Of a DNA stretch of 64,000 nucleotides, positions 8,733 through 59,716 are shown one piece after another (the first letter of the stretch is position 1; each line of letters begins with the position of its first letter). The position numbers were made by a program, and so were the translations under genes. This DNA comes from Candidatus Microgenomates bacterium (GTDB lineage: Bacteria; Patescibacteriota; Microgenomatia; Daviesbacterales; UBA10151). Location: assembly GCA_016182045.1 (NCBI GenBank), contig JACOYE010000009.1, positions 1,328-65,327 on the forward strand, in the 5' to 3' direction. The notes under the pieces are model-generated. The model had not been told where the DNA came from. It searched no databases and was given only the letters and a program-made list of their open reading frames with translations.

Positions 8733-9191
8733 TCACTTCAGTCCGATTTCTATTTTTTTAATCTTTTCAATTCTCCTTATGTGCCTTTCTTCATTGGTAA
8801 ATGGGGTCTCCAGCCAAAGTTTAACGGCGTCGATAGCATCTTCCTCTTTTAAAAACCTTGCCCCCAAAGATAAAACATTGGCATCGTTATGCTGCCTGCC
8901 AAGTTTCACTATATCCAAGCTACCACCATAAAATACAGTAGTTCTAATATTGGGAAACTTATTGGCCACAATTGCCTCACCCTGACCTGATCCACCTAAA
9001 ATTATGGCCTTACTGCTTGGATCTTTTGAAACTGCTTGGGCTGCTTTGGAAATAAAGTCAGGATAATCATCTTCCGCATCCATTTGATATGCCCCGAAAT
9101 CTTCCACCTCATACCCTCCATCTTGCAGAAATTTTTTAATCTTTTCTTTTAACTCAAACCCAGCATGATCCGTTGCAAGATAAATTACCAT
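8733..9191 (-). CDS. rpiB: ribose-5-phosphate isomerase B
   Basis: RpiB/LacAB family (YLATDHAGFELK...). Confidence 0.85.
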   Translation of the reverse strand: MVIYLATDHAGFELKEKIKKFLQDGGYEVEDFGAYQMDAEDDYPDFISKAAQAVSKDPSSKAIILGGSGQGEAIVANKFPNIRTTVFYGGSLDIVKLGRQHNDANVLSLGARFLKEEDAIDAVKLWLETPFTNEERHIRRIEKIKKIEIGLK

Positions 9192-9197
9192 ACTTAT

Positions 9198-9230
9198 ATT
9201 GTAAATTGTAAATTGTAAATTGTAAATTGA
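9198..9230. repeat. tandem heptanucleotide repeat (TTGTAAA, about 4.5 copies)
   Basis: attgtaaattgtaaattgtaaattgtaaattga sits 7 nt upstream of the rpiB start codon on the minus strand. Read on the coding strand it gives repeated TACAAT, -10-like hexamers. Confidence 0.8.
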
Positions 9231-11543: not shown

Positions 11544-11548
11544 CTAAC

Positions 11549-11770
11549 TATTCTTTCGGGGTTTTGTGTAAGTCAAAATCGGTGGTAAAACTCCACGATC
11601 CCGCACCGTCTGGTGCAGGAACGAACTGGTGAAAATCCAGTAGCGACCGTACAGTCGGAATGAAAGAAAGACGTCGTCCCCGCGAAAGCGGGGAACCATA
11701 AAATAATTATATGGATCCCAGACTTGATCTGGAATGACTGATGAATTTAGCCCCGAAAGGGGCTTTTTTG
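11549..11770 (+). ncRNA. orphan small RNA (~220 nt), class unknown
   Basis: Its own promoter lies upstream. It is GC-rich with multiple hairpins (GCACC-GTCT-GGTGC, ACTGG-TGAAAAT-CCAGT, CCCCGC-GAAA-GCGGGG). It ends in a canonical intrinsic terminator (AGCCCCGAAAGGGGCT plus T6 at 11749-11770). No + strand gene follows, and the minus-strand ORF over it looks spurious. Confidence 0.5.
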
Positions 11771-14406: not shown

Positions 14407-14480
14407 TGGCTGCTGGGCTTGGATTTGAACCAAGATAGATAGCTCCAGAGGCTATCGTCCTACCGTTAGACGACCCAGCA
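14407..14480 (-). tRNA. tRNA-Gln (anticodon CUG), CCA encoded
   Basis: Manual fold: acceptor stem TGCTGGG paired with CCCAGCA (U1-A72), discriminator G73 and encoded CCA; D-arm GTCT-AACGGTA-GGAC; anticodon stem ATAGC paired with GCTAT around loop CTCTGGA; T-arm CTTGG-TTCAAAT-CCAAG. Confidence 0.8.
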
Positions 14481-14984: not shown

Positions 14985-16307
14985 TCAACTTGATGATTTC
15001 TCCAGATATGCTAAAGCTTCATTTGCTCTTTTTAAAGTCTCTTCTTCCCCCAATATTTTAACACTCTCAAAAAGCGGCGGGCTAACCAATTGGCCCGAGA
15101 TAGCCACTCTGATCAACTGGAAAGTTTGGGTCGCTGAAAGTCCATGGCTTTCACCAAATTGTCTGAATGTTTTTTCAAACATATCAGCCTTCCATGGTTT
15201 CTCCATCTTTTCCATCACCTCTAACATCTCTTTCAATAACTTCACTATGTCCAACCTTTTCTTAACCACTTTTTCAAATACCTCTTGTTCGTACTCCGGT
15301 TTTTCCCAGAGAAAATCTGTCAGCGGTATGAAATCCGATAACTTCTTAATCCTCTCTTTAACAAGCGGTATAACTTTATCTAGCTCCTCATCTGCTGGAT
15401 GTTCTAGTTTTCCTTGAGAGATATCCTTCAAATATTCTAAGATTTGAGTTTTGAGTTTTGAGTTTTGAGTTTTCCTAATATATTCTCCATTCATCCATTC
15501 CAGTTTCCGGACATCAAAAATGGCAGGGGCAGTATTTAAATCTTTCAAATCAAATTCTTCTATCATCTCCGACAGAGTTAAAATTTCTTTTCCAGAGGGA
15601 GGGGTCCATCCCAAAAGCACCAGGAAATTGATCAACGCCTCTGGTAAAAATCCATCTCTTTTATAATCTAAAACACCTATGCTTCCATGTCTTTTGGAAA
15701 GTTTACTTCTATCAGTTGCTAAAATATTGGGAGAGTGGGCAAACTGCGGAATATCCCATCCAAATGATTCATACAACATGATGTGTTTTGGTGTTGATGA
15801 AATCCAGTCTTCACCACGAGTCACATGAGAAATGTTCATCAGATGATCGTCAACCACGGAGGCCAAATGATAGGTGGGATATTCATCGGATTTTAAAATT
15901 ACAAAATCTTCCACCTGCCTATTCTCAAACTTAATGCTCTTATTACCCACTAAATCAATCCAGGAAGTTGAACCCTCTTTTTTTGTCTTAAAGAAAATTG
16001 CTTCTTCCTGTTGGTAAGCTTTATCAGAATTCAATAATTGAAGTGCATGTTCTTTATAAATATCCAATCGTTCTGACTGAAGGATTACTTTCTCGTCCCA
16101 ACTCAGACCAAGCCACTTTAAGCTATCATAAATGGCACTATAACTTTCCTCAACTTCCCTTTTTTTGTCGGTATCCTCAATTCTTAAAAGAAATTTACCC
16201 CTGTTGTGTTTTGCAAAAAGATAGGTAAAAAGTGCAGTTCTCATATTACCCACATGAGGATTACCGGTAGGTGATGGTGCATATCTTACTCTAACTTCCT
16301 CAGCCAT
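14985..16307 (-). CDS. gltX: glutamate--tRNA ligase
   Basis: Class I HIGH region (APSPTGNPHVGNMRTALF) and KMSKS-like motif (KLSKRHG). Confidence 0.85.
   Translation of the reverse strand: MAEEVRVRYAPSPTGNPHVGNMRTALFTYLFAKHNRGKFLLRIEDTDKKREVEESYSAIYDSLKWLGLSWDEKVILQSERLDIYKEHALQLLNSDKAYQQEEAIFFKTKKEGSTSWIDLVGNKSIKFENRQVEDFVILKSDEYPTYHLASVVDDHLMNISHVTRGEDWISSTPKHIMLYESFGWDIPQFAHSPNILATDRSKLSKRHGSIGVLDYKRDGFLPEALINFLVLLGWTPPSGKEILTLSEMIEEFDLKDLNTAPAIFDVRKLEWMNGEYIRKTQNSKLKTQILEYLKDISQGKLEHPADEELDKVIPLVKERIKKLSDFIPLTDFLWEKPEYEQEVFEKVVKKRLDIVKLLKEMLEVMEKMEKPWKADMFEKTFRQFGESHGLSATQTFQLIRVAISGQLVSPPLFESVKILGEEETLKRANEALAYLEKSSS
15445..15473. repeat. tandem heptamer (TGAGTTT x4) inside the gltX coding sequence
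   Basis: tgagttttgagttttgagttttgagtttt. It is read through as KLKTQ... on the coding strand. Confidence 0.7.
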
Positions 16308-18355: not shown

Positions 18356-19729
18356 TTATTTTTTATTTTTAATATTTACATTTAGTCTTATATCAACTCT
18401 CTCCATATCTCTTGGGAAAAGGGCGGCCTCTCTGATATTTGCAAGACCTAAGATTTGCATGATCATTCTCTCCAGTCCAAAAGAAAATCCTCCCTCAGGC
18501 GGCATACCGTATTTGAAGGCCATTAAATACATCTCAAAATCTTTTGGATCCATGCCGTGAGACTTTATTGACTCGACCAATTGTTGATAGTCATTTATTC
18601 TTTGACTTCCAGACAGTATTTCAATCCCTTTAAATAGTAAATCATAACTTAGGCTGTATTCTGAATTTTTTGGATCCGGCATGGTGTAAAAAGGCTTGGC
18701 AGCAGTTGGGAAATGAGTGACAGTTATAAAATCAGAATTGTGTTTCTTTTTTGCCCATTTGCATAGATCCTGCTCATCTTGGGGTGTTAAATCTTTTTCT
18801 TTCTTATTGTCTCTACCATATTCTTTAAGAATAACTTCCTGAGCTTCTCTTAAAGTTAATCGGGGAATTTTATTATAGACAATCTCCTCTGCACCATATT
18901 CTTTAAGATATAGCTTGGATGAATTTTGAACATGCTCCACCATGCTTATGGCAATACTTTCATAAATATCCATTAATTCATCAAAGGAGGTAAATCCAAA
19001 TTCACAATCCATTTGAGTAACTTCCGCAAGATGCCTGGTAGTGACTGAAGGTTCTGCCCTATATGCTTTGGTAATTGTAAAAACCCTCTCAAAAACAGGA
19101 ACTAACATCTGCTTATAAAGCTGGGGGCTTTGGGTCAAAAATGCTTTATGTTCAAAATATTCTATCCTAAATACCTCCGCACCACCTTCTGTGGATGAGG
19201 CAGCAATGGTTGGAACAACAACTTCAGTACAACCTAATTTTTGACAAACTTGTCTAAATGAAGAAAGCAAAGCTTCTTGGACTTTAAAAATGGCCTTGAT
19301 TTTTGGGTGTCTTAAGCTGAGAGTACGCCAGTCTAAAAGAGTTGGCAGTTCCAAATTAAGAGTTGGACCTCCCATGTCAAATGGCAACTCCGAAGCTTTT
19401 GATAAAATCTCTATACTTTCTGCTGAAATTTCAATTTCTCCAGTGGGAATATTTTTATTGACCAGATTGGTAGGCCTTTTGTTTACCTTACCTATAATGC
19501 AAACCACATCTTGCGGGCTTATCTCACCTCCGAGGTGAGCTGAAGATGTAACCTTGCTCACACCTCGGAGGTGTGTGTCTTGGGATACAACTACTTGTAT
19601 TAACCCAGTTCTATCCAAAACATCCAAAAATAAAATCTTCCCGTGATCGCGCCTGGTCTGAATCCAACCGTAAATGGTCACTATTTCGCCAACTTTATCA
19701 TTACAATCTAAAATTAAAGTTCTTTCCAT
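18356..19729 (-). CDS. aspS: aspartate--tRNA ligase, archaeal/eukaryal-type (class IIb; could be AsnRS)
   Basis: N-terminal OB anticodon-binding fold; class II motifs; C-terminal GGFSFGLERMIM...FPRD. At ~457 aa it fits archaeal-type AspRS. Confidence 0.65.
   Translation of the reverse strand: MERTLILDCNDKVGEIVTIYGWIQTRRDHGKILFLDVLDRTGLIQVVVSQDTHLRGVSKVTSSAHLGGEISPQDVVCIIGKVNKRPTNLVNKNIPTGEIEISAESIEILSKASELPFDMGGPTLNLELPTLLDWRTLSLRHPKIKAIFKVQEALLSSFRQVCQKLGCTEVVVPTIAASSTEGGAEVFRIEYFEHKAFLTQSPQLYKQMLVPVFERVFTITKAYRAEPSVTTRHLAEVTQMDCEFGFTSFDELMDIYESIAISMVEHVQNSSKLYLKEYGAEEIVYNKIPRLTLREAQEVILKEYGRDNKKEKDLTPQDEQDLCKWAKKKHNSDFITVTHFPTAAKPFYTMPDPKNSEYSLSYDLLFKGIEILSGSQRINDYQQLVESIKSHGMDPKDFEMYLMAFKYGMPPEGGFSFGLERMIMQILGLANIREAALFPRDMERVDIRLNVNIKNKK
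19524..19574. repeat. pair of CACCTCCGAGGTG-type palindromic motifs inside the AspRS coding sequence
   Basis: ctcacctccgaggtgag ... ctcacacctcggaggtgtg. Locally GC-rich, it encodes SAHLGGEISPQD within the N-terminal domain. Confidence 0.6.
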
Positions 19730-19796: not shown

Positions 19797-19935
19797 TATG
19801 CAAAAACCACAAGGAAGAAATTTTGGTTTCTTCTTTACCTTCGCTTAAGCGGAGGTTGGCCTGCCTGTCGGCAGACAGGTTTTTGCAAAGCTAACTAAAT
19901 TAGACTAACCTCCGAGATTATTGCGGAGGTTTTTT
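19797..19935 (+). ncRNA. ~140-nt leader or small RNA with two tandem intrinsic terminators
   Basis: Terminator 1 is CCTGTC-GGCA-GACAGG plus T5 (19858-19884). Terminator 2 is CCTCCG...CGGAGG plus T6 (19907-19935). CGGAGGTT at 19846-19853 can pair alternatively with AACCTCCG at 19901-19908. The element lies upstream of the ORF at 19966. Confidence 0.45.
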
Positions 19936-22735: not shown

Positions 22736-22794
22736 CCTCCGAGGTGTAATTGCTCGCCTCGCTGCGAAGCGGGCATTTCTTCACCTCGGAGGTG
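22736..22794. repeat. composite palindromic element in the recJ-cca intergenic region
   Basis: CACCTCCGAGGTG at 22736-22748, then GCTCGCCTCGCTGCGAAGCGGGC at 22752-22774, then CACCTCGGAGGTG at 22782-22794. Confidence 0.7.
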
Positions 22795-22844
22795 TATTGA
22801 TAGAGCAAATTGTATCACACACCCCAGGAGTGTAAAATGACTAC

Positions 22845-24254
22845 ATGGATTATAAATTACCTAATGAGGTAAAAATTATTTTAAATAAATTTCAAAAAGC
22901 TAATTTCCAAATTTATATTGTGGGAGGGGCTGTCCGTGACCTTTTAATGGGCAAGGTTGTAAGAGATTGGGATTTTACCACAGATGCTAAACCTGAGGAA
23001 ATTTTGAAAATAATCCCTGGGGGTTTTTATGACAATAAATTTGGTACGGTAGGTTTGGCAGTTGAGGATGGAGTATTTGAGATTACAACGATGAGGAAGG
23101 AGGGCGTCTACAAAGATTTCCGTCATCCTGACTCGGTTTCCTGGACCAATAAAATTGAGGAGGATTTAGGCAGACGAGATTTTACTGTCAATGCTATGGC
23201 ATTAGTTCCTAAAAGCGTCATTGCGAGCGAAGCGAAGCAATCTTCCACGGAAGATCGCCACGTCGCTAGCGCTCCTCGCGATGATAAATGGATGTTAGCA
23301 GATCCATTTCATGGACAACAGGACATCAAGGATAAACTGACTAGAGCAGTTGGAGATCCTAATACCCGTTTCCAAGAAGATGCTCTACGTCTAATAAGAG
23401 CTATCAGATTTGCCACAGAATTAGATTTTGACATAGATCCTAAAACTTTTGAGGCAATCCAAAAAAATGCTCCTCTTTTAAATGAGATTGCCAATGAAAG
23501 AGTTCGTGATGAGCTGTTTAAAATACTTGCCTCAGATAATGCTTATGAAGGAATCATCAAGTTAAGAGAGGCAAAATTACTACAAATTATTTTGCCGGAG
23601 CTGGAAAAATGCTTTGGTATTGTGCAGCAAGGACCAAAGCATGATAGAACTTATGATATTGGTGAACACTCTTTACTCACCCTTAAATACACCCCCTCTG
23701 GTGATTCATTAGTAAGATTGGCTTCTCTACTTCATGATATTGGTAAAACAGATACGGTAAAAGCTTCTCCCGATGGCAATGTCACTTTTTATCAGCATGA
23801 TGTGGTTGGCGGTGAGATTGTCAAAAAAATTGCCAAAAGATTTAATCTGTCTAAAAAACAAGCTGAAAAATTATCTCGATTAGTCAGATGGCACATGTTT
23901 ACAGTTTCAGAACACCAAACCGATTCTGCCATCAGAAGATTCATTAAAAATGTAGGTCTAGACAATATTAATGACATGATGGCACTACGAATCGGTGATA
24001 GATTAGGTGGTGGTACACAAACAGAAACCTCTTGGAGGATGGAAAAATTTCAACAAAGAATTAAACAGGTCCTCAAAAAACCATTTTCCATAACTGATCT
24101 TAAGGTTAATGGCAATGATGTGATGGAAGTACTTAACATAAAACCGGGCCCCAAAGTCGGCGAAATACTGCAGAAACTTTTTGAAGAAATCTTAGAAGAT
24201 TCTAATAAAAATAATCGTGATTATCTTTTAAATAGAATAAAGAATATAGAATAA
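22845..24254 (+). CDS. cca: CCA-adding enzyme (tRNA nucleotidyltransferase with HD domain)
   Basis: Pol-beta NTase head (IYIVGGAVRDLLMGK...DWDFTT) and an HD domain (LLHDIGK). Confidence 0.8.
   Translation: MDYKLPNEVKIILNKFQKANFQIYIVGGAVRDLLMGKVVRDWDFTTDAKPEEILKIIPGGFYDNKFGTVGLAVEDGVFEITTMRKEGVYKDFRHPDSVSWTNKIEEDLGRRDFTVNAMALVPKSVIASEAKQSSTEDRHVASAPRDDKWMLADPFHGQQDIKDKLTRAVGDPNTRFQEDALRLIRAIRFATELDFDIDPKTFEAIQKNAPLLNEIANERVRDELFKILASDNAYEGIIKLREAKLLQIILPELEKCFGIVQQGPKHDRTYDIGEHSLLTLKYTPSGDSLVRLASLLHDIGKTDTVKASPDGNVTFYQHDVVGGEIVKKIAKRFNLSKKQAEKLSRLVRWHMFTVSEHQTDSAIRRFIKNVGLDNINDMMALRIGDRLGGGTQTETSWRMEKFQQRIKQVLKKPFSITDLKVNGNDVMEVLNIKPGPKVGEILQKLFEEILEDSNKNNRDYLLNRIKNIE
23216..23286. repeat. 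GC-rich imperfect palindromic element inserted in-frame in cca
   Basis: cgtcattgcgagcgaagcgaagcaatctt...cgctagcgctcctcgcgatga. Its first 29 nt exactly equal the reverse complement of 24327-24355. It encodes SVIASEAKQSSTEDRHVASAPRDDK. Confidence 0.7.
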
Positions 24255-24261
24255 AGAGTTG

Positions 24262-24358
24262 AATCGTCATTGCGAGGAGTAAAACGACGAAGCAATCTTG
24301 ATAGAATTAAATTAAATAATCATTAAAAGATTGCTTCGCTTCGCTCGCAATGACGTAA
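24262..24358. repeat. MITE-like hairpin element with ~29-nt inverted arms, 3' of cca
   Basis: Left arm cgtcattgcgag[gagtaaaacgac]gaagcaatctt; right arm aagattgcttcgcttcgctcgcaatgacg; AT-rich loop between. Confidence 0.7.
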
Positions 24359-34548: not shown

Positions 34549-34909
34549 GTGCCTAGGAAGAGAGTAAGCCAGATTCTGTTTTCTCGCTTCGCGAAGCGAG
34601 TAGATGATCATTTATCTAATGCTCCTCATTTCGACTAGTTGGCGAGCAGCCTAAGTCGGTTCTAGGATTGCAGCGGGGAGGATTGCCCTTCGACTCGTCC
34701 CGATTACATCGGGACTCGCTCAGGGCTATAGCCCTTTGCTTATCGAATACCCTGTGGCTTGATCGTTTCACTCGGCGCCACCCGAATCGTCACTGTTGCT
34801 CTATACTCGCGGTCACCCGGTCTCGCCTTGCGGCGGACACCCTACTCTTTGCTGTCTGGACTTTCCTGTCCCGATTTAATCGGGACCGATCATCCTTCTT
34901 CCTAGGCTT
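34549..34909 (-). ncRNA. rnpB: RNase P RNA (bacterial type A-like)
   Basis: On the minus strand: P1 AGCCTAGGAAGA paired with TCTTCCTAGGC; P2 GATGATC with GATCATC; P3 hairpin GGTCCCGATTAAATCGGGAC; universally conserved ACAGGAAAGTCCAGAC (P4 5' strand); CAACAGTGA (J11/12-like); P4 3' strand CTAGAACCGACTTAG. A TATAAT -10 sits just upstream. The overlapping + strand ORF 34668-34967 is spurious. Confidence 0.8.
34583..34600. repeat. perfect GC palindrome CTCGCTTCGCGAAGCGAG embedded in rnpB
   Basis: It lies between the P2 3' strand and the P1 3' strand of the RNase P RNA and belongs to the same repeat family as the coding-region insertions. Confidence 0.6.
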
Positions 34910-34922
34910 ATATATTATACAC

Positions 34923-36005
34923 CTAAACTTTATTTGCTTCAATTATTTCTGTAGCCACTATCTGTAAAACTACTGCAATTGGAACTGCCAAAAGCGCCCC
35001 GGCAAATCCCAGAAGTCTAGATCCTATGGCGATGGCTAAAATTACCACCAAAGGATTAAGCCCAACTGCCCGTCTCATCACCTGAGGAACTATCAGATGA
35101 TTCTCCAGTTGCTGAATAACAAAGTACATTGCAGCAACTCCCAAAGCTAGGATCGGCGAAATAGTCAAAGCAATAATGATACCTGGTATTGATGAAATAA
35201 TTGGTCCTATCACCGGTATAACTTCCAATACGCCTGCTACCACAGCCAGCGGTATGGCAAAGGGGATATCTAAAATAATCAAACCCAAATAAGTAAGCAC
35301 TCCCACGATCAAGCTAAGCAGTATCTGACCGCGAAGCCAAGCGCCTAATTTTTCCTCTATTTGAACAATCAGTTTTTTGACTCTTTCTTCTCTGCCTATA
35401 AAAACAGAAGCCGCTTTAGTTTCCAAATTATCTCTTTCAACTAAAAGATAAAAGGTTAACACCAAAAGAAAAATAATAGCCAAAAGATTATCAAATATAC
35501 CCAAGGTGATGGAAAAGACATTCTTTGATAAGGCAGCCAGCTCTGATTGAACAACAGACCTGTCGATATTTAAAATACTAAAAACTTGTGCCAGTATGGG
35601 AGGCAGTGAACTAACCAAATGTGTTGTTTGCTCAATCAGTGGCGGCAAGATACTAAATAGTAATCCCCCAATCAAGGATATAATAATAATGTAGGTAATA
35701 CCAATACTTAAGGCTTTCGGCATCTTAGCTTTGGTAAATAAATTAACCAAAGGATTAAGTGCAGACATTAAAATTATTCCTATAAAAATAATAACTAGAA
35801 GATCACGGATTAAATAAAGCGCCCAAAGACCCAAGATAAAAGCTGCAATAAAAATTATTGTTTTATGTGAGATATCAATTTTTTGTATCATCAGCTTGAT
35901 GATACCATCCTGCAACCATTTTTGCCACATTATCTGGAAAATTCTTACGTTTTTCGTCAGAAAAAGGAAAGCTCTGCTTATCAAGAATATCAAACCAATA
36001 GACAT
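34923..36005 (-). CDS. AI-2E family transporter (PerM/YhhT, UPF0118)
   Basis: 8-TM permease with AI-2E conserved motifs. Start uncertain, since it overlaps the miaA 3' end by ~130 nt as called. Confidence 0.65.
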   Translation of the reverse strand: MSIGLIFLISRAFLFLTKNVRIFQIMWQKWLQDGIIKLMIQKIDISHKTIIFIAAFILGLWALYLIRDLLVIIFIGIILMSALNPLVNLFTKAKMPKALSIGITYIIIISLIGGLLFSILPPLIEQTTHLVSSLPPILAQVFSILNIDRSVVQSELAALSKNVFSITLGIFDNLLAIIFLLVLTFYLLVERDNLETKAASVFIGREERVKKLIVQIEEKLGAWLRGQILLSLIVGVLTYLGLIILDIPFAIPLAVVAGVLEVIPVIGPIISSIPGIIIALTISPILALGVAAMYFVIQQLENHLIVPQVMRRAVGLNPLVVILAIAIGSRLLGFAGALLAVPIAVVLQIVATEIIEANKV

Positions 36006-36900
36006 TTTTTTCTTTTTTAAACCAGGTTAATTGCCTTCTGATATAGCCGTGAATTTTGTTTTGCATGATTTCAATTAAACCCTGATCTCCCTCGATCACC
36101 CTTATTTTCCCATCTAAATAATCAGCCAATACTCCATATTCCAATCCCAACTGCCTCATTCTTTTTAAACTGAGTCCCCCTTTATACAATCTTTTTGCTT
36201 CCTCAACCATTCCCTGGTTTAGCCTTTTAACTACACGTTCATCTGATCCTTGATAAAGAATCCTCCTTGATGCGGTCAGTCCAATCTTTAAAGTATTAAG
36301 ACCACCTCGGATGGTGGCCCGTAGGGACTCCTCCGAGATGAATTCAGCTGATGCAAGCTCTATAGCCCTAACCAGTCTTCTTGGATTTTGTCTATCAGAA
36401 TCATTCATTTTCTTCCATCTTTGGGGGGAAAGTTTTTGTAATCTTGCCTGCAATTGAGACAGAGGTAACTTCTCCAGCTCTTTTCTTAACTTTAAATTTG
36501 GTGGAATTGCCAAAGCAGGTAATCCTTCAAGCAGGGCCTTCAGGTATAACCCCGTCCCACCAACTACAATAGGTAGCTTGCCTCTTTCCCTTATTTCCCC
36601 AATTACCCTATTTGCATCCTTGACATAATCAAAAACTGTATATTGCTTTTTAGGACTAATCACATCATGCATCCACACCCTAATCCCCCCAATCTCCCAA
36701 AACCCCTGTCCCTTCTTCCAGTTTCCATCTTCCAGTTTCCATCTTCCGCTGGGTAGTTTACCCGTCCCTATATCAAGTCCCACATAAACTTGTCTAGAAT
36801 CACAAGAAACCAATTCCCCATCAAATTTTTTGGCCAAAATTAATGCCAAATCAGTTTTGCCTGTGGATGTTGGACCCAAGATAACTAAAAGTTTTTTCAT
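35875..36900 (-). CDS. miaA: tRNA dimethylallyltransferase
   Basis: P-loop ILGPTSTGKT plus DSRQVY. Contains an in-frame 15-nt tandem duplication at 36728-36757. Confidence 0.8.
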   Translation of the reverse strand: MKKLLVILGPTSTGKTDLALILAKKFDGELVSCDSRQVYVGLDIGTGKLPSGRWKLEDGNWKKGQGFWEIGGIRVWMHDVISPKKQYTVFDYVKDANRVIGEIRERGKLPIVVGGTGLYLKALLEGLPALAIPPNLKLRKELEKLPLSQLQARLQKLSPQRWKKMNDSDRQNPRRLVRAIELASAEFISEESLRATIRGGLNTLKIGLTASRRILYQGSDERVVKRLNQGMVEEAKRLYKGGLSLKRMRQLGLEYGVLADYLDGKIRVIEGDQGLIEIMQNKIHGYIRRQLTWFKKEKNVYWFDILDKQSFPFSDEKRKNFPDNVAKMVAGWYHQADDTKN

Positions 36901-36948: not shown

Positions 36949-38286
36949 ATGAAGATTGCCATATTGGGTGCTGGTTTTACCGGACTTTCTGCTGCCTTTA
37001 GACTTTTACAAAAAGGTTATCAGGTGACTATTTTTGAGAAGGAAGAAAGTTCAGGCGGATTGGCCGTGGGGTTTAAATTAGCCAACTGGCAGTGGAGTTT
37101 AGAAAAAGGTTATCATCACTGGTTTACCAATGATGATTCCATTTTGCATTTGGCCAAAGAGATAAATCACCAGGTAATCATTGAACGTCCTAGTACAGAT
37201 GTTTTTACTCATGGTAAGCGTTTACCTTTTGATAGTGCGACCACCCTGATAAATTTTAGATACCTACCAATTATTGACAGAGTCCGGGTAGCTTTAATCT
37301 TGGCATTTTTAAAAATACTACCAAGCCATCATTTACTTGATGGTAAAAAAGCTTTACCTTGGATCAGAAAATTTATGGGGGAAAAATCCACCAAACTTAT
37401 CTGGAACCCCCTTTTTACTTCTAAATTTGGCAAGTTTAGTGAACAGATTGCTCTCACCTGGTTTTGGGCCAGAATTAAAAAAAGAACCCCTTCTTTGGCT
37501 TATCCCCAAGAAGGATTTCAAGCTTTTGCCGATCATCTAGGTAAAGAGATTAAAAAAATGGGTGGGGAAATCTTGCTAAATACTCAAGTTGTCGAATTGG
37601 TAAGTAGAAATAACGATGTTGTTGTTAAAACTACCAACTACCCGCTTCGCGACTTTCGTCGACGCAGGCGCGAGGCGAGCCAACTACCAACTACCAACTA
37701 CTATTTCGACAAAGTAATAGTTACTTTACCCTCTCCTATCTTTACAAAAATTGCCCATGGACTGCCCAAGCAATACACGGATAGAATAACCTCAATTCCT
37801 CATCTGCATGCTCAGGTATTAATCCTGATTTTAAACAAACCTTTTATGGATAAAACCTATTGGTTAAATATTACAGAAAAGGATTTCCCTTTCTTGATCT
37901 TGGCAGAACATACCAACTTTATGGATTCCAAATACTATGGCGGACAACATATCTTATATATAGGCAATTATCTGCCGCCTGATCATCCGTATCTTAAGAT
38001 GACTGTGAAAGAATTATTAAAAGTTTTTGACCCTTTTCTTAAAAAGATAAATCCAAACTACCAACTACATACTACAAACTACCAACTATTCATTGGTCCT
38101 TTTGCCCAGCCCATTGTCACAGTTGACTACCCAAACTTGATTCCATCATTTACAACTCCACTAAAAGGAGTTTATCTTGCCAACTTAGACATGGTCTATC
38201 CTTGGGATAGGGGAACAAATTATGCTGTTGAGCTGGGAGAGAAAATTGCTGATATGATAGATAAAGATCATGCCAAAGTTAAATAA
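36949..38286 (+). CDS. FAD-dependent oxidoreductase (amine-oxidase / phytoene-desaturase-like Rossmann fold)
   Basis: Dinucleotide-binding motif IAILGAGFTGLSAA...IFEKE. First gene of the GT-C cluster. Confidence 0.65.
   Translation: MKIAILGAGFTGLSAAFRLLQKGYQVTIFEKEESSGGLAVGFKLANWQWSLEKGYHHWFTNDDSILHLAKEINHQVIIERPSTDVFTHGKRLPFDSATTLINFRYLPIIDRVRVALILAFLKILPSHHLLDGKKALPWIRKFMGEKSTKLIWNPLFTSKFGKFSEQIALTWFWARIKKRTPSLAYPQEGFQAFADHLGKEIKKMGGEILLNTQVVELVSRNNDVVVKTTNYPLRDFRRRRREASQLPTTNYYFDKVIVTLPSPIFTKIAHGLPKQYTDRITSIPHLHAQVLILILNKPFMDKTYWLNITEKDFPFLILAEHTNFMDSKYYGGQHILYIGNYLPPDHPYLKMTVKELLKVFDPFLKKINPNYQLHTTNYQLFIGPFAQPIVTVDYPNLIPSFTTPLKGVYLANLDMVYPWDRGTNYAVELGEKIADMIDKDHAKVK
37641..37681. repeat. 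GC-rich palindromic element inserted in-frame in the FAD-oxidoreductase gene
   Basis: cccgcttcgcgactttcgtcgacgcaggcgcgaggcgagcc is ~75% GC in an AT-rich gene and encodes PLRDFRRRRREAS. It shares end motifs CCCGCTTCGC...GCGAGGCGAGCC with 54102-54130 and 22752-22774. Confidence 0.7.
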
Positions 38287-39874
38287 GCAATTTCTTCTAT
38301 TAGCATTAATCATCATAATTGGGTCATTTTTACGCTTCTACAAACTGGACTGGGGTGAGGGATTATTTACTCACCCGGATGAATATCATATAGCTAGCTC
38401 TGTTAGGCAATTATCTTTTCCTTCTCAGATGAATCCACATTTTTTCAATTATGGAACAGTCATTATTTACCTAAATTTTCTTACTAAAGAGATTTTGCAA
38501 AACTTTAATCTGGATCCATTTTTGATTGGACGTTTTTATTCAAGCTTATTCTCAACACTAACTATCTTCGTAATATACAAAATCAGTAGATTTATTCTGG
38601 ATAAAAAATGGGCTCTTGTGTCAGCATTGTTAGTTGCCATCACTCCAGGACTAATTCAGCAAGCTCATTTTTCAACACCCGAATCCACCCTCACATTCTT
38701 TATTACTTCAGCGCTGCTATTTCTTCTTCACTTTATTAGAGATGGCAGGCTAAATTATCTACTTCTTTCATCCGTTTTTTTAGGATTAGGTATGGGGACT
38801 AAAGTTGTGGCAATTCTTTTTTTGCCATTATTCATATTAGGAATAATTATCAAATCTTTAAAAAAGCCCTCAAATTTACTGCTGCTTGTGGCTGCTGCCA
38901 CCATTACCACCATCACCATATTTGCCATATCTTCACCATTCGTTTTTCTAGACTTCTCAAGTTGGCGTTCCTCATTCAATTATGAGCAATCACTGGCAAT
39001 GGGAAAAATACCGATTTTCTACACCAGACAATTTATTAATACTTATCCCATTCTTTTTCAGCTAGAAAAAATCTTGCCGTTTACTTTGGGGATACCACAG
39101 TCAATTTTCGCTGTCTTTGGTTTTATCTTTATTCCCTTCTTGTTAATCAGAAAATTTAAGCCAGATTTGTTCATTATTTTATTAGTATTCTTAATTTTTT
39201 TTCTTACCAACGCACTTCTTTTTACCAAATGGACTCGCTTTGTTACCCCCACTTTTCCTTTTTTTGCAATTTTTACCTCCCTTTTCCTGCAAGAAATATC
39301 AAAGAAAGCTCGCTCTTTAGGATTGATATTAACTACTGTCACAGCTATCCTAACAATAATCTGGTCATGGGCATTCTTTTCAATTTACTTAAATCATGAT
39401 GTCCGTATTGAAGCTGATAAGTGGCTAAAGTCGCAACTGCCAAAAGAGTCTGTTTTTTTGGTGGAAGGAGGAAACATCGTTGATTTACCATTGACTGGCT
39501 CTGAAAGAATATCTCTAGATTTTTACCATCTGGAGGATGATCCAGCTGTCAGGCAAAAAATAATCGAGACCCTAGCCAGATCTGATTATTTTCTTATTCA
39601 ATCTCGTCGAGTTTTTTTAAATCATCAAAGACTCTCCACTCTTTATCCTAAAACAGCTCGCTTCTATGATGCTCTTTTTAGTGGCCAACTGGGATTTGAG
39701 CAAATTAAGCAGTTTCATTCCTATCCCCGCCTATCTTTGGGAGCTTTCATTTGGGAGTTTCCTGATGAACAAGCAGAAGAAACCTGGTCTGTTTTTGATC
39801 ATCCAATCATTCGAATTTTCCAGAAAAAAGTAAAATTAACTAAGGAGGATTATGAAAAAATTATTGAGCAATAA
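38270..39874 (+). CDS. GT-C-fold membrane glycosyltransferase (GT39/GT83, PMT/ArnT-like), paralog 1
   Basis: Many TM helices; conserved first-loop motif LRFYKLDWGEGLFTHPDEYH; C-terminal soluble domain. Confidence 0.65.
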   Translation: MPKLNKQFLLLALIIIIGSFLRFYKLDWGEGLFTHPDEYHIASSVRQLSFPSQMNPHFFNYGTVIIYLNFLTKEILQNFNLDPFLIGRFYSSLFSTLTIFVIYKISRFILDKKWALVSALLVAITPGLIQQAHFSTPESTLTFFITSALLFLLHFIRDGRLNYLLLSSVFLGLGMGTKVVAILFLPLFILGIIIKSLKKPSNLLLLVAAATITTITIFAISSPFVFLDFSSWRSSFNYEQSLAMGKIPIFYTRQFINTYPILFQLEKILPFTLGIPQSIFAVFGFIFIPFLLIRKFKPDLFIILLVFLIFFLTNALLFTKWTRFVTPTFPFFAIFTSLFLQEISKKARSLGLILTTVTAILTIIWSWAFFSIYLNHDVRIEADKWLKSQLPKESVFLVEGGNIVDLPLTGSERISLDFYHLEDDPAVRQKIIETLARSDYFLIQSRRVFLNHQRLSTLYPKTARFYDALFSGQLGFEQIKQFHSYPRLSLGAFIWEFPDEQAEETWSVFDHPIIRIFQKKVKLTKEDYEKIIEQ

Positions 39875-41519
39875 TCAGTATTTTTATTTAGTGATCATCC
39901 TAATTATTGCAGCAACTTTGAGATTCTATGGCCTTAACTGGGATCAAAACCAACATCTTCACCCAGATGAGAGGATGATAACGATGGTGAGTTTGAATAT
40001 CCGTTTACCTCAAGATAAATATGAATGGCAGAATATTATGACGCCACAAAGTGTTCTTAATCCAAAATTTTTTGCTTATGGCAATTTTCCTATTTATCTT
40101 TTAAAAATTAGCGGATCTTTATTGGGACAAATTGATCACAAATTATCCACTTACGATGGGATAAACTTATTGGGAAGAATCTGGTCTGTGATTTTTGATA
40201 TTGGTATTATAATCATACTTTTCCTTTTAGGTAAAAAATTATTCAGTGAAATAATAGGAATATTTTCAGCCTTTTTCTATACTATCTCGGTTTTAGCAAT
40301 TCAACTGGCTCATTTTTATGCTGTTGATACACCCTTAACTTTTTTCATATTATTGACACTTTATCAAAGTATCAGATTTTATGAGAGGCCAACCAAACTA
40401 AGAGCAGTTTTTGTGGGGTTTTTATTTGGTCTCTCCCTGTCCATCAAAACAAGTGCATTACTTTTGGTCTCATCAATTGGCATTGCCTTAGCTGTCCCTC
40501 ACATTTGGTTCCCTCATTTGCCATTATTTATGAAAAAACTTCTTATGAATGGACTGATTATTATTGCCATCAGCATAATAACTTTTGTAATATTTGAACC
40601 TTTCGCTTTGATCGACTTTTCTAGCTTTTGGAGTCAAACTCAAGAACAACGAAGAATGACCTATGATCCATTTACCTTTCCCTATACCTTACAATATGTG
40701 GGAAAAATCCCCTATATTTATGAAATAAAAAATATCTTTCTTTGGGGAGAGGGCCCAATTCTTGCCACACTATCATTTATCAGCATTTTCTATTTCACAT
40801 ATCTAGCACTTAAAAAATACAGGCAACCAGTTTGGGCAAAGGAATTAATCCTTGTGATATTTTTTTGGGTGTATTTTTTTGTGGTGGGAAATTTTTCCAT
40901 CGGTTTTATGCGCTATATGCTTCCTATTTATCCTATATTTTGTCTGGCAGCAGCAGTTTTATTTTATGCTGTTTTCAAAAGATTACCCATTATTCTTTAT
41001 TCTTTATTCATAATTCTATCACTGATCTGGCCTTTATCATTTATTAATATTTATTCACAACCAAACACCAGAGTCTTAGCAACAGATTGGATCAATAAAA
41101 ATATTCCATTGGGTTCAACTATAGCTACCGAGCATTGGGATGATGGTTTGCCTCTTGGTACTCAAGACAATTACAAAGTTTTAGAATTACCAATGTATGA
41201 ACCGGATGCGCCCGCTAAATGGGATAAGATTAATCAAATATTACAAGAAACAGAATATATAATTATTGCATCAAACAGACTTTATACCCCATTACAAAAA
41301 CTTACCAACTGCTCAAAACTTCCTCCTGGCCGTTGTTATACTCAAACAGCCCAGTATTATAAAAAATTATTTGACGGTTCTTTGGGTTTTAAAAAAATTG
41401 CCGAATTTTCAATTTACCCAAAAATTCCATTTCTAAATATTGAAATTGAAGATCAAAATGCCGATGAATCATTCACTGTCTATGATCATCCAAAAGTTTT
41501 GATTTTTAAAAAATCATAA
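39852..41519 (+). CDS. GT-C-fold membrane glycosyltransferase (GT39/GT83-like), paralog 2
   Basis: Paralogous first-loop motif LRFYGLNWDQNQHLHPDERM. Confidence 0.65.
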   Translation: MKKLLSNNQYFYLVIILIIAATLRFYGLNWDQNQHLHPDERMITMVSLNIRLPQDKYEWQNIMTPQSVLNPKFFAYGNFPIYLLKISGSLLGQIDHKLSTYDGINLLGRIWSVIFDIGIIIILFLLGKKLFSEIIGIFSAFFYTISVLAIQLAHFYAVDTPLTFFILLTLYQSIRFYERPTKLRAVFVGFLFGLSLSIKTSALLLVSSIGIALAVPHIWFPHLPLFMKKLLMNGLIIIAISIITFVIFEPFALIDFSSFWSQTQEQRRMTYDPFTFPYTLQYVGKIPYIYEIKNIFLWGEGPILATLSFISIFYFTYLALKKYRQPVWAKELILVIFFWVYFFVVGNFSIGFMRYMLPIYPIFCLAAAVLFYAVFKRLPIILYSLFIILSLIWPLSFINIYSQPNTRVLATDWINKNIPLGSTIATEHWDDGLPLGTQDNYKVLELPMYEPDAPAKWDKINQILQETEYIIIASNRLYTPLQKLTNCSKLPPGRCYTQTAQYYKKLFDGSLGFKKIAEFSIYPKIPFLNIEIEDQNADESFTVYDHPKVLIFKKS

Positions 41520-54077: not shown

Positions 54078-55186
54078 TAAGCAGCAACTTCTTCAATTAT
54101 ACCCGCTTCGCCCGCGAAGCGAGGCGAGCCAGTTTCTTCCTCTTTTCCAACAACCATTTCTTTCCCTTCCTTTTGTTTACCCCAGGCTTCCCTTATTTCT
54201 TTTTCCAAATTTAGGGCCTCTTTCTTATTGGCTTTTAAGTAATCTATTGCAGCTTGTCTGCCCTGACCCAACATGATTTCATTCCATTTTATAAAGGCTC
54301 CTGACTTTTGTAGAATTCCAAGCTCCAATCCCACATCCAAAAGTTCTCCTTCGTGAGAAATTCCATTTTCATCCATATCAAATTCGGCAATTCTAAATGG
54401 GGGAGCCACTTTATTTTTGACAACCTTAACTCTGTGTCTTGAACCAACCACTGTGTCTCCCACTTTGATATTTTCAATTTTTCTAATATCTAGTCTAACT
54501 GATGTATAGAATTTTAAAGCTAATCCACCTGGAGTAGTCTCCGGGTTCCCAAACATCACTCCAATTTTTTGTCTTAACTGGTTAGTAAAAATAATAATCG
54601 TATTTGTATTTGATACTGCTCCGGTTAATTTTCTTAAAGCCTGAGACATCAGTCTTGCCTGCATACCCATCACAGCATCTCCCATCTCCCCTTCAAGCTC
54701 TGCCCTAGGCACCAAAGCTGCAACTGAGTCTATTACCAATACATCAATTCCGCCAGATCTGATCAAAGCCTCTGCAATTTCTAAAGCCTGCTCGCCAGTA
54801 TCTGGTTGGGAAATTAAAAGATCATCTAAATTAACACCTATCTTTTGTGCTCTTTGGGGATCCAAAGCATGCTCTGCATCAATAAATGCTGCCACTCCAC
54901 CTCTTTTTTGTGCCTCAGCTATAACATGAAGACAGACTGTGGTTTTTCCGCCTGCCTCTGGGCCAAAAACTTCAATAATCCTGCCTCTTGGCAAACCTCC
55001 AACTCCTAAAGCAAGATCTAAAGCGATAGAACCTGTGGGGATAACTTGGGTAGTCAGTTTCTCTGCTCTTTCACCCAACCGCATAATAGAACCAGTACCA
55101 TATTGCTTTTGGATCTGTTGCATGGCCGCGGCAATTGCAGCTTTACGGGCCTCATCATTGGGTTGTGCCATAATCCTATTATACAA
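54077..55186 (-). CDS. recA: recombinase RecA
   Basis: Walker [10 protein letters not shown] and the L1/L2 loop regions. The C-terminal tail contains a GC-rich element insertion. Confidence 0.9.
54102..54130. repeat. GC-rich palindromic element in-frame in the recA C-terminal tail
   Basis: cccgcttcgcccgcgaagcgaggcgagcc encodes SPRFAGEAG within the RecA tail. Confidence 0.7.
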
Positions 55187-55302: not shown

Positions 55303-55374
55303 CGGAGACTAGTTCATCGGTAGAACGCTCGCATGGGGTGCGAGAAGTACGGGGTTCAATTCCCCGGTCTCCGA
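55303..55374 (+). tRNA. tRNA-Pro (anticodon GGG)
   Basis: Manual fold: acceptor stem CGGAGAC paired with GTCTCCG (the C1-G72 pair typical of bacterial tRNA-Pro), then U8 A9; D-arm GTTC-ATCGGTA-GAAC; anticodon stem CTCGC paired with GCGAG around loop ATGGGGT; T-arm CGGGG-TTCAATT-CCCCG; discriminator A. No CCA is encoded. Confidence 0.8.
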
Positions 55375-58539: not shown

Positions 58540-59658
58540 TTAAACAATTCTTTCCCAAGGAAATTCTTCGCGGCCGAAGTGACCATAAATAGCAGTGGGC
58601 AAATAGATTGGTCTTTGCAAATCCAATCCTTCCAAGATACCTTCCACTGATGTATCTAAAATTTTATTCATAAAAGAAATTAAAACTTTATGAGATTTTT
58701 TAGCAGTCCCAAAAGTTTCCACCTCTTGCATAGTTGGTCTTTTTGCTCCAATAAAATATGCAAGTCTTACTTCTGCCTTATCTGCCAATTTATTTGCCAC
58801 CACATTTTTGGCCAAAAACCTGGCAGCATATGCTCCAGATCTATCAACTTTTGTTGGGTCTTTTCCTGAAAAACATCCTCCGCCAACTCTGGCGTATCCA
58901 CCATATGTATCTACTACAATTTTTCTACCTGTCACCCCACAATCAGATGCCGGCCCTCCCCAATGCCAAACACCAGTACCATTAACTATCAAATCCTTTA
59001 TATTTATCTTGAAGCCATACTGATCTAAAACTGGAATTACCACTGTATTATAAAGTTCCTTCTTAACCTGATTTAGGTTGATTGATTCCTCATGTGGTAC
59101 TGCTATCACTACTTGCAAAACCCTTACTGGCTTACCATTTTTATATTCAATGGTAACTTGACTCTTACCATCCGGTCTTAAATAAGGAACCAATTTTTCT
59201 TCTCTAACTTGATCCATTCTTTTTGTTAAACCGTGGGCCAAAGTTATCGGCAGTGGCATAAATTGAGGGGTCTCTCTGCAGGCGAACCCGAACATCATTC
59301 CTTGATCACCGGCACCTTTATCTTTCTTGACACCTACGGCAATTTCTGGCGATTGTTCATGAACATATACTTCAATAGGGGATTTGTCAGAAAAATTATA
59401 CAAAGAATCTGTATATCCTAGTCTTCTTATTTGCTCTTTGGCAATTTTTTTGAAATCTACTTTTGCGTTGGCTGTTACCTCTCCGGCAATAACTACCCTG
59501 TTAAAACCAACCAATGTCTCGCAAGCGACATGACCATATCTGTCTTGGGCCAAAACTGCATCTAAAATAGCATCAGAAATTTGGTCACAAATTTTATCTG
59601 GATGACCGGCACAGACAGATTCAGATGTAAATGTAGTTATACCGTTACTTTTTATCAT
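58540..59658 (-). CDS. metK: S-adenosylmethionine synthase
   Basis: ESVCAGHPDKICDQISD and GGGAFSGKD-like motifs. Confidence 0.9.
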   Translation of the reverse strand: MIKSNGITTFTSESVCAGHPDKICDQISDAILDAVLAQDRYGHVACETLVGFNRVVIAGEVTANAKVDFKKIAKEQIRRLGYTDSLYNFSDKSPIEVYVHEQSPEIAVGVKKDKGAGDQGMMFGFACRETPQFMPLPITLAHGLTKRMDQVREEKLVPYLRPDGKSQVTIEYKNGKPVRVLQVVIAVPHEESINLNQVKKELYNTVVIPVLDQYGFKINIKDLIVNGTGVWHWGGPASDCGVTGRKIVVDTYGGYARVGGGCFSGKDPTKVDRSGAYAARFLAKNVVANKLADKAEVRLAYFIGAKRPTMQEVETFGTAKKSHKVLISFMNKILDTSVEGILEGLDLQRPIYLPTAIYGHFGREEFPWERIV

Positions 59659-59716
59659 AAGAACCTCGCTTCGCGAGAACCTTGCGATAGTTCCGACTTC
59701 GTCGTAATAACTATCT

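Follow-up and report, generated by a model that had tools for sequence, protein, structure and literature searches.

The DNA analysed here is a stretch of 64,000 nucleotides (nt) from a contig of a Candidatus Microgenomates bacterium, and this whole stretch is referred to as the window. Its gene for a flavin adenine dinucleotide (FAD)-dependent oxidoreductase contains a GC-rich palindrome, and comparison with orthologous DNA shows that this palindrome is a 39-nt insertion with exact borders, located in an array of tandem heptanucleotides and free of any target-site duplication. It belongs to a dispersed family of very small palindromic elements, it is positioned in a loop of the protein, and copies of the family are found in heptanucleotide arrays in excess of the chance expectation. 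The insert is therefore probably a tolerated, translated copy of this family, and we hold this explanation with good confidence.

The insert and its host protein

The open reading frame (ORF) 36949..38286 encodes a protein of 445 amino acids (aa) that matches Pfam Amino_oxidase (1.6e-26) and NCBIfam PRK07233 (1.4e-109), and is 100% identical to an annotated FAD-dependent oxidoreductase of a Candidatus Microgenomates bacterium. A search gave more than 6,000 homologues; the best 120 have 407-442 aa, and 27 of these were aligned with the query (28 sequences). The closest ortholog from the best 120 is P0002 (locus L121), with 78% aa identity. The gene looks intact and functional, since every residue that is invariant over the 28-sequence alignment is retained in the window protein (P0001). 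The best fold matches of its structure model in the PDB are 2ive/2ivd, with template modelling (TM) scores of 0.74-0.77, which have the protoporphyrinogen oxidase/monoamine oxidase/phytoene desaturase fold. The features of the gene are as follows.

36949..38286, + strand: host gene, FAD-dependent oxidoreductase with amine-oxidase/protoporphyrinogen-oxidase fold (ORF, Pfam/NCBIfam, alignment, fold matches)
37630..37640, + strand: left part of array 1, ACTACCA ACTA, encoding the end of β-strand 224-230
37641..37679, + strand: 39-nt palindromic insert CCCGCTTCGC-GACTTTCGTCGACGCAGGC-GCGAGGCGAG (ortholog gap, arm pair, P0090 borders)
37643..37651, + strand: left arm of the predicted hairpin, CGCTTCGCG (folding)
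37669..37677, + strand: right arm of the predicted hairpin, CGCGAGGCG (folding)
37680..37701, + strand: right part of array 1, CCA ACTACCA ACTACCA ACTAC, encoding β-strand 248-253
38054..38088, + strand: array 2, five imperfect units encoding the peptide NYQLHTTNYQL, in another reading frame than array 1

An earlier note, made from the letters of this DNA, had described a 41-nt GC palindrome within the oxidoreductase gene. The palindrome is confirmed, and the 41-mer quoted there corresponds to positions 37641-37681 of the + strand; the in-frame, Arg-rich peptide PLRDFRRRRREAS is also correct, but the true insertion is 39 nt long. From the window site alone its placement is ambiguous by up to 2 nt (37641-37679, 37642-37680 and 37643-37681 are equally possible), and the copy in the homologue P0090 settles the ends as CCCGC...GCGAG. 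The insert, read in the host frame, gives 13 residues with five consecutive Arg. Its G+C content is 72%, compared with 36.8% over the window.

The insert is an imperfect palindrome with a 9-base-pair stem (CGCTTCGCG/CGCGAGGCG) that includes one T.G pair. Folded as RNA, the hairpin has a minimum free energy of -19.6 kcal/mol (z = -3.2 against shuffles); as DNA it is weaker (z = -1.8). The bottom strand includes d(GCGAAGC), a motif that forms a stable mini-hairpin. Such a stable RNA hairpin might be a device at the RNA level, which pauses ribosomes, modulates the stability of the messenger RNA, or is bypassed or recoded like the 'byp' elements of Magnusiomyces mitochondria; the repeated codons on both sides could in principle be take-off and landing sites. 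However, the hairpin has no T-run, terminator or Rfam match, and copies of the family lie in both orientations relative to their host genes. A bypass is also not needed, because the insert is in frame and free of stop codons, and an RNA-level device is considered very unlikely. A terminator-like site, a promoter-like site and an Rfam family were all looked for at the insert site and none was found, so that a terminator, a promoter or a known RNA family was rejected there. The opposite strand at this site contains no ORF of at least 60 aa.

The source of the sequence is a contig of a metagenome-assembled genome (MAG), and the 90% protein cluster of the window flavoenzyme has a single member, both of which would be consistent with an artefact of assembly or sequencing. 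However, the insert is exactly in frame, three copies of the family lie on the same contig, and independent copies, obtained in different studies with different assemblers, have the same borders. We regard an artefact as extremely improbable.

In the AlphaFold2 model (mean predicted local distance difference test, pLDDT, 83.8; predicted TM score 0.86), the insert is found between strands 224-230 and 248-253. The earlier note had proposed structure prediction as a check for a surface loop, and the insert does fall in a loop, with pLDDT below 50 at residues 233-238 and 240-242. It probably forms a solvent-exposed, disordered loop of 13 Arg-rich residues at the low-confidence tip of a β-hairpin. 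This hairpin is taken to be the exposed β-meander that lies ahead of the "D-x-V-I-x-T-x-P" strand in the FAD-binding domain. The typical loop of the enzyme family is about 18 residues shorter than that of the window protein, and in other orthologs (e.g. P0016, P0103 and P0090) the same loop holds other inserts encoded by GC palindromes.

Five consecutive Arg on an exposed hairpin tip might also be an adaptive feature of the protein; the 13-mer would then be selected for contact with a membrane or a nucleic acid or for partner binding, and the palindrome would be incidental. The genomic context offers some support, as two membrane-protein ORFs follow downstream (38270..39874 and 39852..41519), the first of which overlaps the flavoenzyme gene, and the ORFs downstream of two orthologs match Pfam PMT_2. 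However, the segment is present in no aligned ortholog, the structure model is of low confidence at the insert, and the peptide derives directly from the conserved arms of the DNA element (PLR...EAS). Moreover, copies of the DNA family are read in each of the six frames, and others occur in intergenic DNA and in an RNA gene. Selection for the peptide is considered improbable, although somewhat less so than a device at the RNA level.

Filled and empty sites

The earlier note had also reported aactaccaactac on both sides of the palindrome and raised a target-site duplication as a possibility, which it did not assert because the peptide TTNYQL recurs elsewhere in the gene. The flanking repeats are present; however, they are pieces of a pre-existing heptamer array and not a duplication. 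The distrust of a duplication was right, but the repeat lies in the DNA and not in the peptide as such, and this is why the peptide repeat was seen twice. The 13-mer AACTACCAACTAC occurs at 37629, 37682, 37689 and 38056, with a one-mismatch copy at 38077; these five matches (0.05 expected in the window) are all within the flavoenzyme gene.

Without the insert, array 1 is (ACTACCA)x4.7, which comprises 33 nt and encodes TTNYQLPTTNY. The window site reads GTTAAA ACTACCA ACTA[39 nt]CCA ACTACCA ACTACCA ACTAC TATTTC, and the empty site of the closest ortholog in L121 reads GTTAAA (ACTACAA)x4.7 CATTTC, also with an array of 33 nt. The units of the two arrays differ in concert, every one being ACTACAA in L121 and ACTACCA in the window. 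The comparison with orthologs lacking the insert, which the earlier note had recommended, thus gave an uninterrupted 33-nt array at the DNA level: the segment is in none of the 27 aligned homologues, the closest ortholog shows a clean 39-nt gap, and the insertion is lineage-specific. It leaves the phase of array 1 undisturbed. Since the array has 33 nt in both the filled window site and the empty L121 site, there is no target-site duplication.

In P0003 (75% identical), the same array of ACTACCA units contains another GC hairpin, GCCCC-TTCG-GGGGC; this insert has 19 nt and the array is one unit shorter, which preserves the frame.

Three further pairs of filled and empty sites were obtained. 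The 27-nt family copy in recA of the window is absent from the closest RecA (93% identity; L126, from the same sample as L121), in which exactly those 27 nt are missing, and most close RecA homologues have correspondingly shorter tails than the window RecA. The RNase P RNA of L121 lacks the palindrome CTCGCTTCGCGAAGCGAG that the window gene carries. P0090, a distant ortholog from Daviesbacteria (56% identical), contains a 21-nt variant, CCCGCTTCGCAGCGAGGCGAG, in the same loop of the flavoenzyme, and the site is empty in its relative P0107; the copy is flanked by a (KCGGAAG)n heptamer array whose phase is restored once the element is removed. No target-site duplication was found in these four filled/empty pairs (flavoenzyme, recA, RNase P RNA, P0090/P0107) beyond an ambiguity of 1-2 nt. 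Within 23 kb of the relative's sequence that were examined, the window palindromes are all absent.

Some other differences were observed at these sites. In the RecA homologues P0135 (L127:5380-5420), P0138 and P0166, the corresponding position of the C-terminal tail is occupied by about 10 additional residues of another kind (SASSVLGEAG-like), which may stem from another insert or from one that has decayed. In the RNase P RNA gene (34549-34905, - strand), the extra piece at the palindrome is CTCGCTTCGCGAAGCGAG plus TA (34583-34602), and compared with the closest relative the window gene also has an extra segment of about 37 nt (34690-34726) containing the hairpin GTCCCGATTACATCGGGAC.

Classical transposition of the type of miniature transposable elements with inverted repeats (MITEs) would explain the AACTACCAACTAC copies, or one CAACTAC unit, as the duplication, and the arrays as footprints of repeated insertion and excision. 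Identical CAACTAC heptamers do adjoin the element on both sides; moreover, elements recur within heptamer arrays, and element-free arrays exist. However, the equal arrays of 33 nt and the three further pairs speak against a duplication, and an event of 39+7 nt would disrupt the reading frame. Array 2, which is built from the heptamer unit of array 1 and located just before the conserved GPFAQP motif, is element-free and ungapped in 27 of the 28 aligned homologues (the exception, P0062, has four extra residues). We give almost no weight to this explanation.

Array 2 is itself variable. Its unit differs between lineages (ACCAACT, ACAAACT, ATCACTT, TCAAATT, AATTCTA and others), and the segment gave a best fit to a heptamer-encoded peptide of 7.3/12 residues, compared with 4.5/12 in control segments. 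A fit of at least 8 was reached by 61 of 119 homologues, against 2 of 550 controls. Judged from these sequences, array 2 looks like a coding tandem repeat under concerted evolution.

The palindrome family and its distribution

The family is built of imperfect 10-nt arms, CCCGCTTCGC and GCGAGGCGAG, around 1, 7, 10 or 19 central bases, and its elements have lengths of 21, 27, 30 and 39 nt, all multiples of three. Compared as terminal inverted repeats, CCCGCTTCGC and the right arm in reverse complement, CTCGCCTCGC, show 2 mismatches. Three copies of the arm pair CCGCTTCGC...GCGAGGCGAGC were counted in the window and none in 100 shuffles. The likeness of the insert to other copies, on which the earlier note had also touched, is thus established within the window, where three sites share the arm pair. 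Besides the insert, the window contains two further copies and one related palindrome.

54102..54128, + strand (recA on the - strand): family copy 2, 27 nt, in the 3' end of recA, encoding part of the C-terminal tail of RecA (arm pair; absent from the closest relative)
22753..22773, - strand: family copy 3, 21 nt, intergenic (arm pair; between the arms of the inverted repeat CACCTCCGAGGTG...CACCTCGGAGGTG)
34583..34600, + strand: related perfect palindrome CTCGCTTCGCGAAGCGAG, in the RNase P RNA gene (absent from the closest relative)

The family ends are CCCGC...GCGAG, without a GTAG-like head. No inverted-doublet partner was found near the window copies, which are single.

An arm-pair scan of one genome per species revealed at least 120 loci, and those with less than 50% G+C were treated as the low-GC set; the counts given here and below are among the matches listed. 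This set contains 87 copies. The low-GC hosts are mostly Patescibacteria, including Daviesbacteria, Levybacteria, Roizmanbacteria, Curtissbacteria, Saccharibacteria, Moranbacteria, Falkowbacteria and others, and the other host labels are Omnitrophota, WOR-3, Bacteroidota, Elusimicrobiota, Pirellulales and Gammaproteobacteria. Further copies with recurrent 28-nt centres are found in Nitrospira loci, which have 55-58% G+C and thus lie above the cut-off. For the pattern of 17 G/C and 4 A/T positions, the chance expectation was estimated at about 0.1 in the low-GC part and in the order of 100 in the high-GC part. The matches with long arbitrary centres in high-GC genomes were set aside, as their number is what chance predicts. 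A phage vector was also rejected, with only 4 matches in 2.9 million viral contigs, all of them high-GC contigs. A literature search on the arm sequences, and on repeats of palindromic or hairpin type in Patescibacteria or the candidate phyla radiation, gave nothing relevant.

The recurrent centres have few forms: A, C, CCGCGAA, CGACTCA and CGGAGCTTCA. Core lengths of 22, 28 and 31 dominate, which correspond to elements of 21, 27 and 30 nt with the borders as established, and 75 of the 87 low-GC copies have element lengths that are multiples of three. Of 84 low-GC copies, 40 fall within open stretches of 150 codons or more, and between them they cover both orientations and each of the six frames. 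One of these frames would turn the commonest centre into a TGA codon, and the copies listed in that frame have variant centres. The genes with in-frame copies or copies in RNA genes include those of the flavoenzyme, RecA, CopA and ArgS, with the related palindrome in RNase P RNA. A search of the metagenome collection gave one match to the 23-nt centre of the window copy, flanked by near-identical arms and located in an unrelated ORF of 399 aa.

These data also bear on a local origin, in which the palindrome would be made in place by replication slippage or by template switching at a hairpin. Tandem repeats are prone to slippage, and around many copies of the family lie larger palindromes that are specific to the copy and could be extended by template switching. 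However, identical arms are present at unrelated loci in many lineages, the 23-nt centre is identical in another gene of another organism, and the insert is dissimilar to the heptamers around it. An origin de novo is hardly credible.

The relation of the family to heptamer arrays was analysed by excising each copy in silico and scoring whether the junction was in or abutted a heptamer array of at least 3 units. Six of 89 copies were positive compared with 0.34 expected (Poisson P = 1.7e-6). An earlier and stricter test of the flanks for 7-nt periodicity, with exact runs, gave a weak signal. One of the six cases, L085, is an A-rich low-complexity tract and possibly no true array. A continuous, near-perfect heptamer array runs over the junction after excision in the window, in L024 (CopA), in L033 and at one of the L088 (ArgS) copies; for P0090, which is a further case besides the six, continuity follows from the alignment with the empty P0107. 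In the CopA of L024 (Daviesbacteria), the entire composite adds 15 aa compared with the solved CopA structure 3j09. Heptamer arrays are a favoured context for the family, not a required one.

The ArgS gene in L088 (L088:3575-5635) comes from a MAG labelled Gammaproteobacteria and has two family copies. Each is located at a CTGA|CGA junction beside heptamer repeats (CTGACGA; CTGATAG), with a CCTGCCTTGCCGGCAGGCAGG palindrome nearby.

Period 7 is the most frequent tandem-repeat period in the window. The array (CAAAACT)x4.4 (15443-15473, - strand) lies within the glutamyl-tRNA synthetase gene gltX and encodes the peptide KTQNSKLKTQ, and the array (ATTGTAA)x4.6 (9198-9229) lies directly upstream of the ORF 8733..9191. 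An array of a 14-nt repeat (36714-36747) was found within the ORF 35875..36900, which is syntenic with an IPPT (miaA-type) gene.

Several other palindromes of the window were noted. The inverted repeat CACCTCCGAGGTG...CACCTCGGAGGTG has two copies, 19525-19573 and 22740-22800; the former surrounds an unrelated centre of 23 nt, the latter the 21-nt copy of the family. At 19849-19885 lies a GC-rich palindrome of the CCTGCCTG...CAGACAGG type, which in other genomes is often the outer layer around family copies. Another GC-rich segment containing CGCTTCGCG, CCTCGCTTCGCGAGAACCTTGCGATAGTTCCGACTTCGTCG, occupies 59667-59710, between one ORF that ends at 59658 and another that starts at 59877. A different GC-rich palindromic element, GTCATTGCGAGCGAAGCGAAGCAATC...GATCGCCACGTCGCTAGCGCTCCTCGCGATGA (about 23216-23285; peptide VIASEAKQSSTEDRHVASAPRDD), is located within the ORF 22845..24254, which we take to be the gene of the CCA-adding enzyme. 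Shortly downstream of this ORF (about 24328-24354), the first half of the element recurs as an exact reverse complement, and a similar element fills the flavoenzyme loop of the ortholog P0016. The RNA features of the window include an FMN riboswitch (11548-11675, 86.7 bits) and tRNA genes at 14410-14480 and 55303-55374.

Possible mechanism and comparison with known systems

Under the preferred reading, a tolerated copy of a dispersed family, the 39-nt copy would have entered a pre-existing (ACTACCA)4.7 array without target-site duplication. The array encodes the two strands of an exposed β-hairpin, and the insert would lengthen the tip of this hairpin and be tolerated by the enzyme. The element would simply be translated, because its length is a multiple of three and it has no stop codon in the host frame. 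It appears to be neutral or selfish rather than adaptive, and its spread is likely to occur at the DNA level by a duplication-free route that uses the hairpin. One candidate route is single-strand 'peel-and-paste' by a trans-acting enzyme of the HUH/Y1 type; three features recall the HUH/Y1 single-strand transposition of REP-RAYT and IS200/IS605, namely the hairpin, arms that differ in a conserved way, and insertion without a duplication. A second candidate, for the copies embedded in arrays, is copying between arrays via template switching or gene conversion. Selection might then filter the copies that survive in genes, favouring lengths in multiples of three, stop-free frames and permissive loops. 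The junctions are A|CC and A|CG (three times each) and G|TC, G|CT, G|CC and G|CA (once each), which suggest a loose target rule R^C(C/G), a purine followed mostly by C.

Several points weigh against this reading. The 39-nt insert is known only from metagenome assembly, and its translation as part of the enzyme is something we infer from the sequence. At any single site, a gain in the window lineage and a precise loss in the relative are indistinguishable, because protein identity to the closest relative is no more than 78% (flavoenzyme) to 93% (RecA). Most copies, 83 of 89, lie outside heptamer arrays. Pair types at the centre of the 30-nt class are mixed, with no clear compensatory covariation, so that selection on the hairpin is at most a possibility. 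Among 20 small ORFs of the window, no Y1/HUH transposase domain (no TnpA) was found.

A wider proposal is put forward as speculative and rather doubtful: Patescibacteria and some other low-GC uncultured lineages might host a two-part system that remodels protein loops at the DNA level. It would consist of concertedly evolving coding heptamer arrays and of cross-phylum palindromes of 21-39 nt that insert without duplication, preferentially into arrays or hairpin loops. The size classes of the family, as multiples of three, would in that case suggest selection for life inside genes, and the palindromes would be among the smallest mobile elements described.

Taken alone, the insert is probably ordinary selfish DNA; of more note are the palindrome family with its borders and host range, and the link of this family to coding heptamer arrays that appear to evolve in concert. 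How very short dispersed repeats move has been a standing question since the REP, RPE and Nostoc SDR elements were described. The present case offers a sequence-defined family with exact borders (10-nt arms, no duplication) and several clean filled/empty sites in conserved genes, together with a statistically supported preference for heptanucleotide arrays and a very broad host range among uncultured bacteria. These features together make it possible to search for a co-occurring mobilising enzyme and to run population tests in metagenomic reads. Moreover, the elements and the heptamer arrays add segments that are rich in Arg, Ala, Ser and Pro, or periodic over 7 residues, to housekeeping proteins of candidate phyla, and annotation, alignment and structure prediction should therefore allow for them.

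Comparison with known systems showed partial similarities. The REP/REPIN sequences are extragenic, have a GTAG-type head, form inverted doublets, and flank the RAYT (Y1 HUH) gene whose product mobilises them (PMC3116915). The present family is similar to them in its imperfect GC-rich palindromes of 20-40 nt, its many copies, its lack of target-site duplication and its arm asymmetry; however, coding sequence holds two of the three window copies, and neither a GTAG-like head nor an inverted doublet is present. The PATEs derived from IS200/IS605 insert without duplication 3' of a fixed tetra- or pentanucleotide, carry subterminal hairpins and are served by TnpA in trans. The absence of a duplication here fits them; the junctions here have in common the loose R^C(C/G), and no TnpA was found among 20 small ORFs of the window.

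The GC clusters of yeast mitochondria (e.g. GC42) have a putative AG target duplication and are mostly intergenic and organellar (PMC4478555). They resemble the present family as GC-rich hairpins of about 40 nt in a very AT-rich genome, with units that merge and shuffle and some copies in coding regions. The 'byp' elements, reported by Lang and co-workers in 2014 and said to be related to GC clusters, are reportedly skipped by the ribosome rather than translated. The palindromic coding repeats of Methanocaldococcus jannaschii (Suyama et al. 2005) are mentioned in PMC2229807. They are likewise short palindromic repeats with open frames, fused into protein genes, but they are archaeal and belong to another sequence family. 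We know of no link between them and heptamer arrays.

The closest analogues of the family are the Nostoc SDR elements (the nearest) and the Rickettsia RPEs, as far as such comparisons by description allow. According to the review PMC2229807, the RPEs have 105-146 bp, are restricted to Rickettsia, and occur in frame in protein genes and also in RNase P (M1) and tmRNA genes (Ogata et al. 2000); the same review states that they are translated and tolerated, and views them as selfish DNA. The RPEs and the present elements are both palindromic and both fused in frame into conserved protein genes, as well as into RNase P RNA. However, the elements here have 21-39 nt, compared with 105-146 bp for RPEs and about 100-400 bp for MITEs, and they are GC-rich elements in AT-rich genomes across phyla. 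Terminal inverted repeats are shared with the MITEs; the target-site duplication is absent in the four filled/empty pairs.

The SDR1-8 elements of Nostoc punctiforme, described by Elhai and co-workers in 2008, are reportedly dispersed elements of 21-27 nt with a central palindrome, often within tandem heptanucleotide or other repeats and sometimes nested, and their mobility is said to have been deduced from filled and empty sites. The very small size and the central palindrome are similar in the present family, in which the classes of 21, 27 and 30 nt dominate and the window copy has 39 nt; the embedding in heptamer arrays is also similar (6/89 against 0.34 expected). PMC5861425 states that SDRs were not found outside Nostocaceae. 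The hosts here, in contrast, are Patescibacteria and other phyla, and the present family, which was compared with SDRs by description and not by sequence, is therefore at most an analogue and not a member. It also differs in being often in frame in conserved protein genes and present in an RNA gene, in having size classes that are multiples of three, and in extending over many low-GC phyla.

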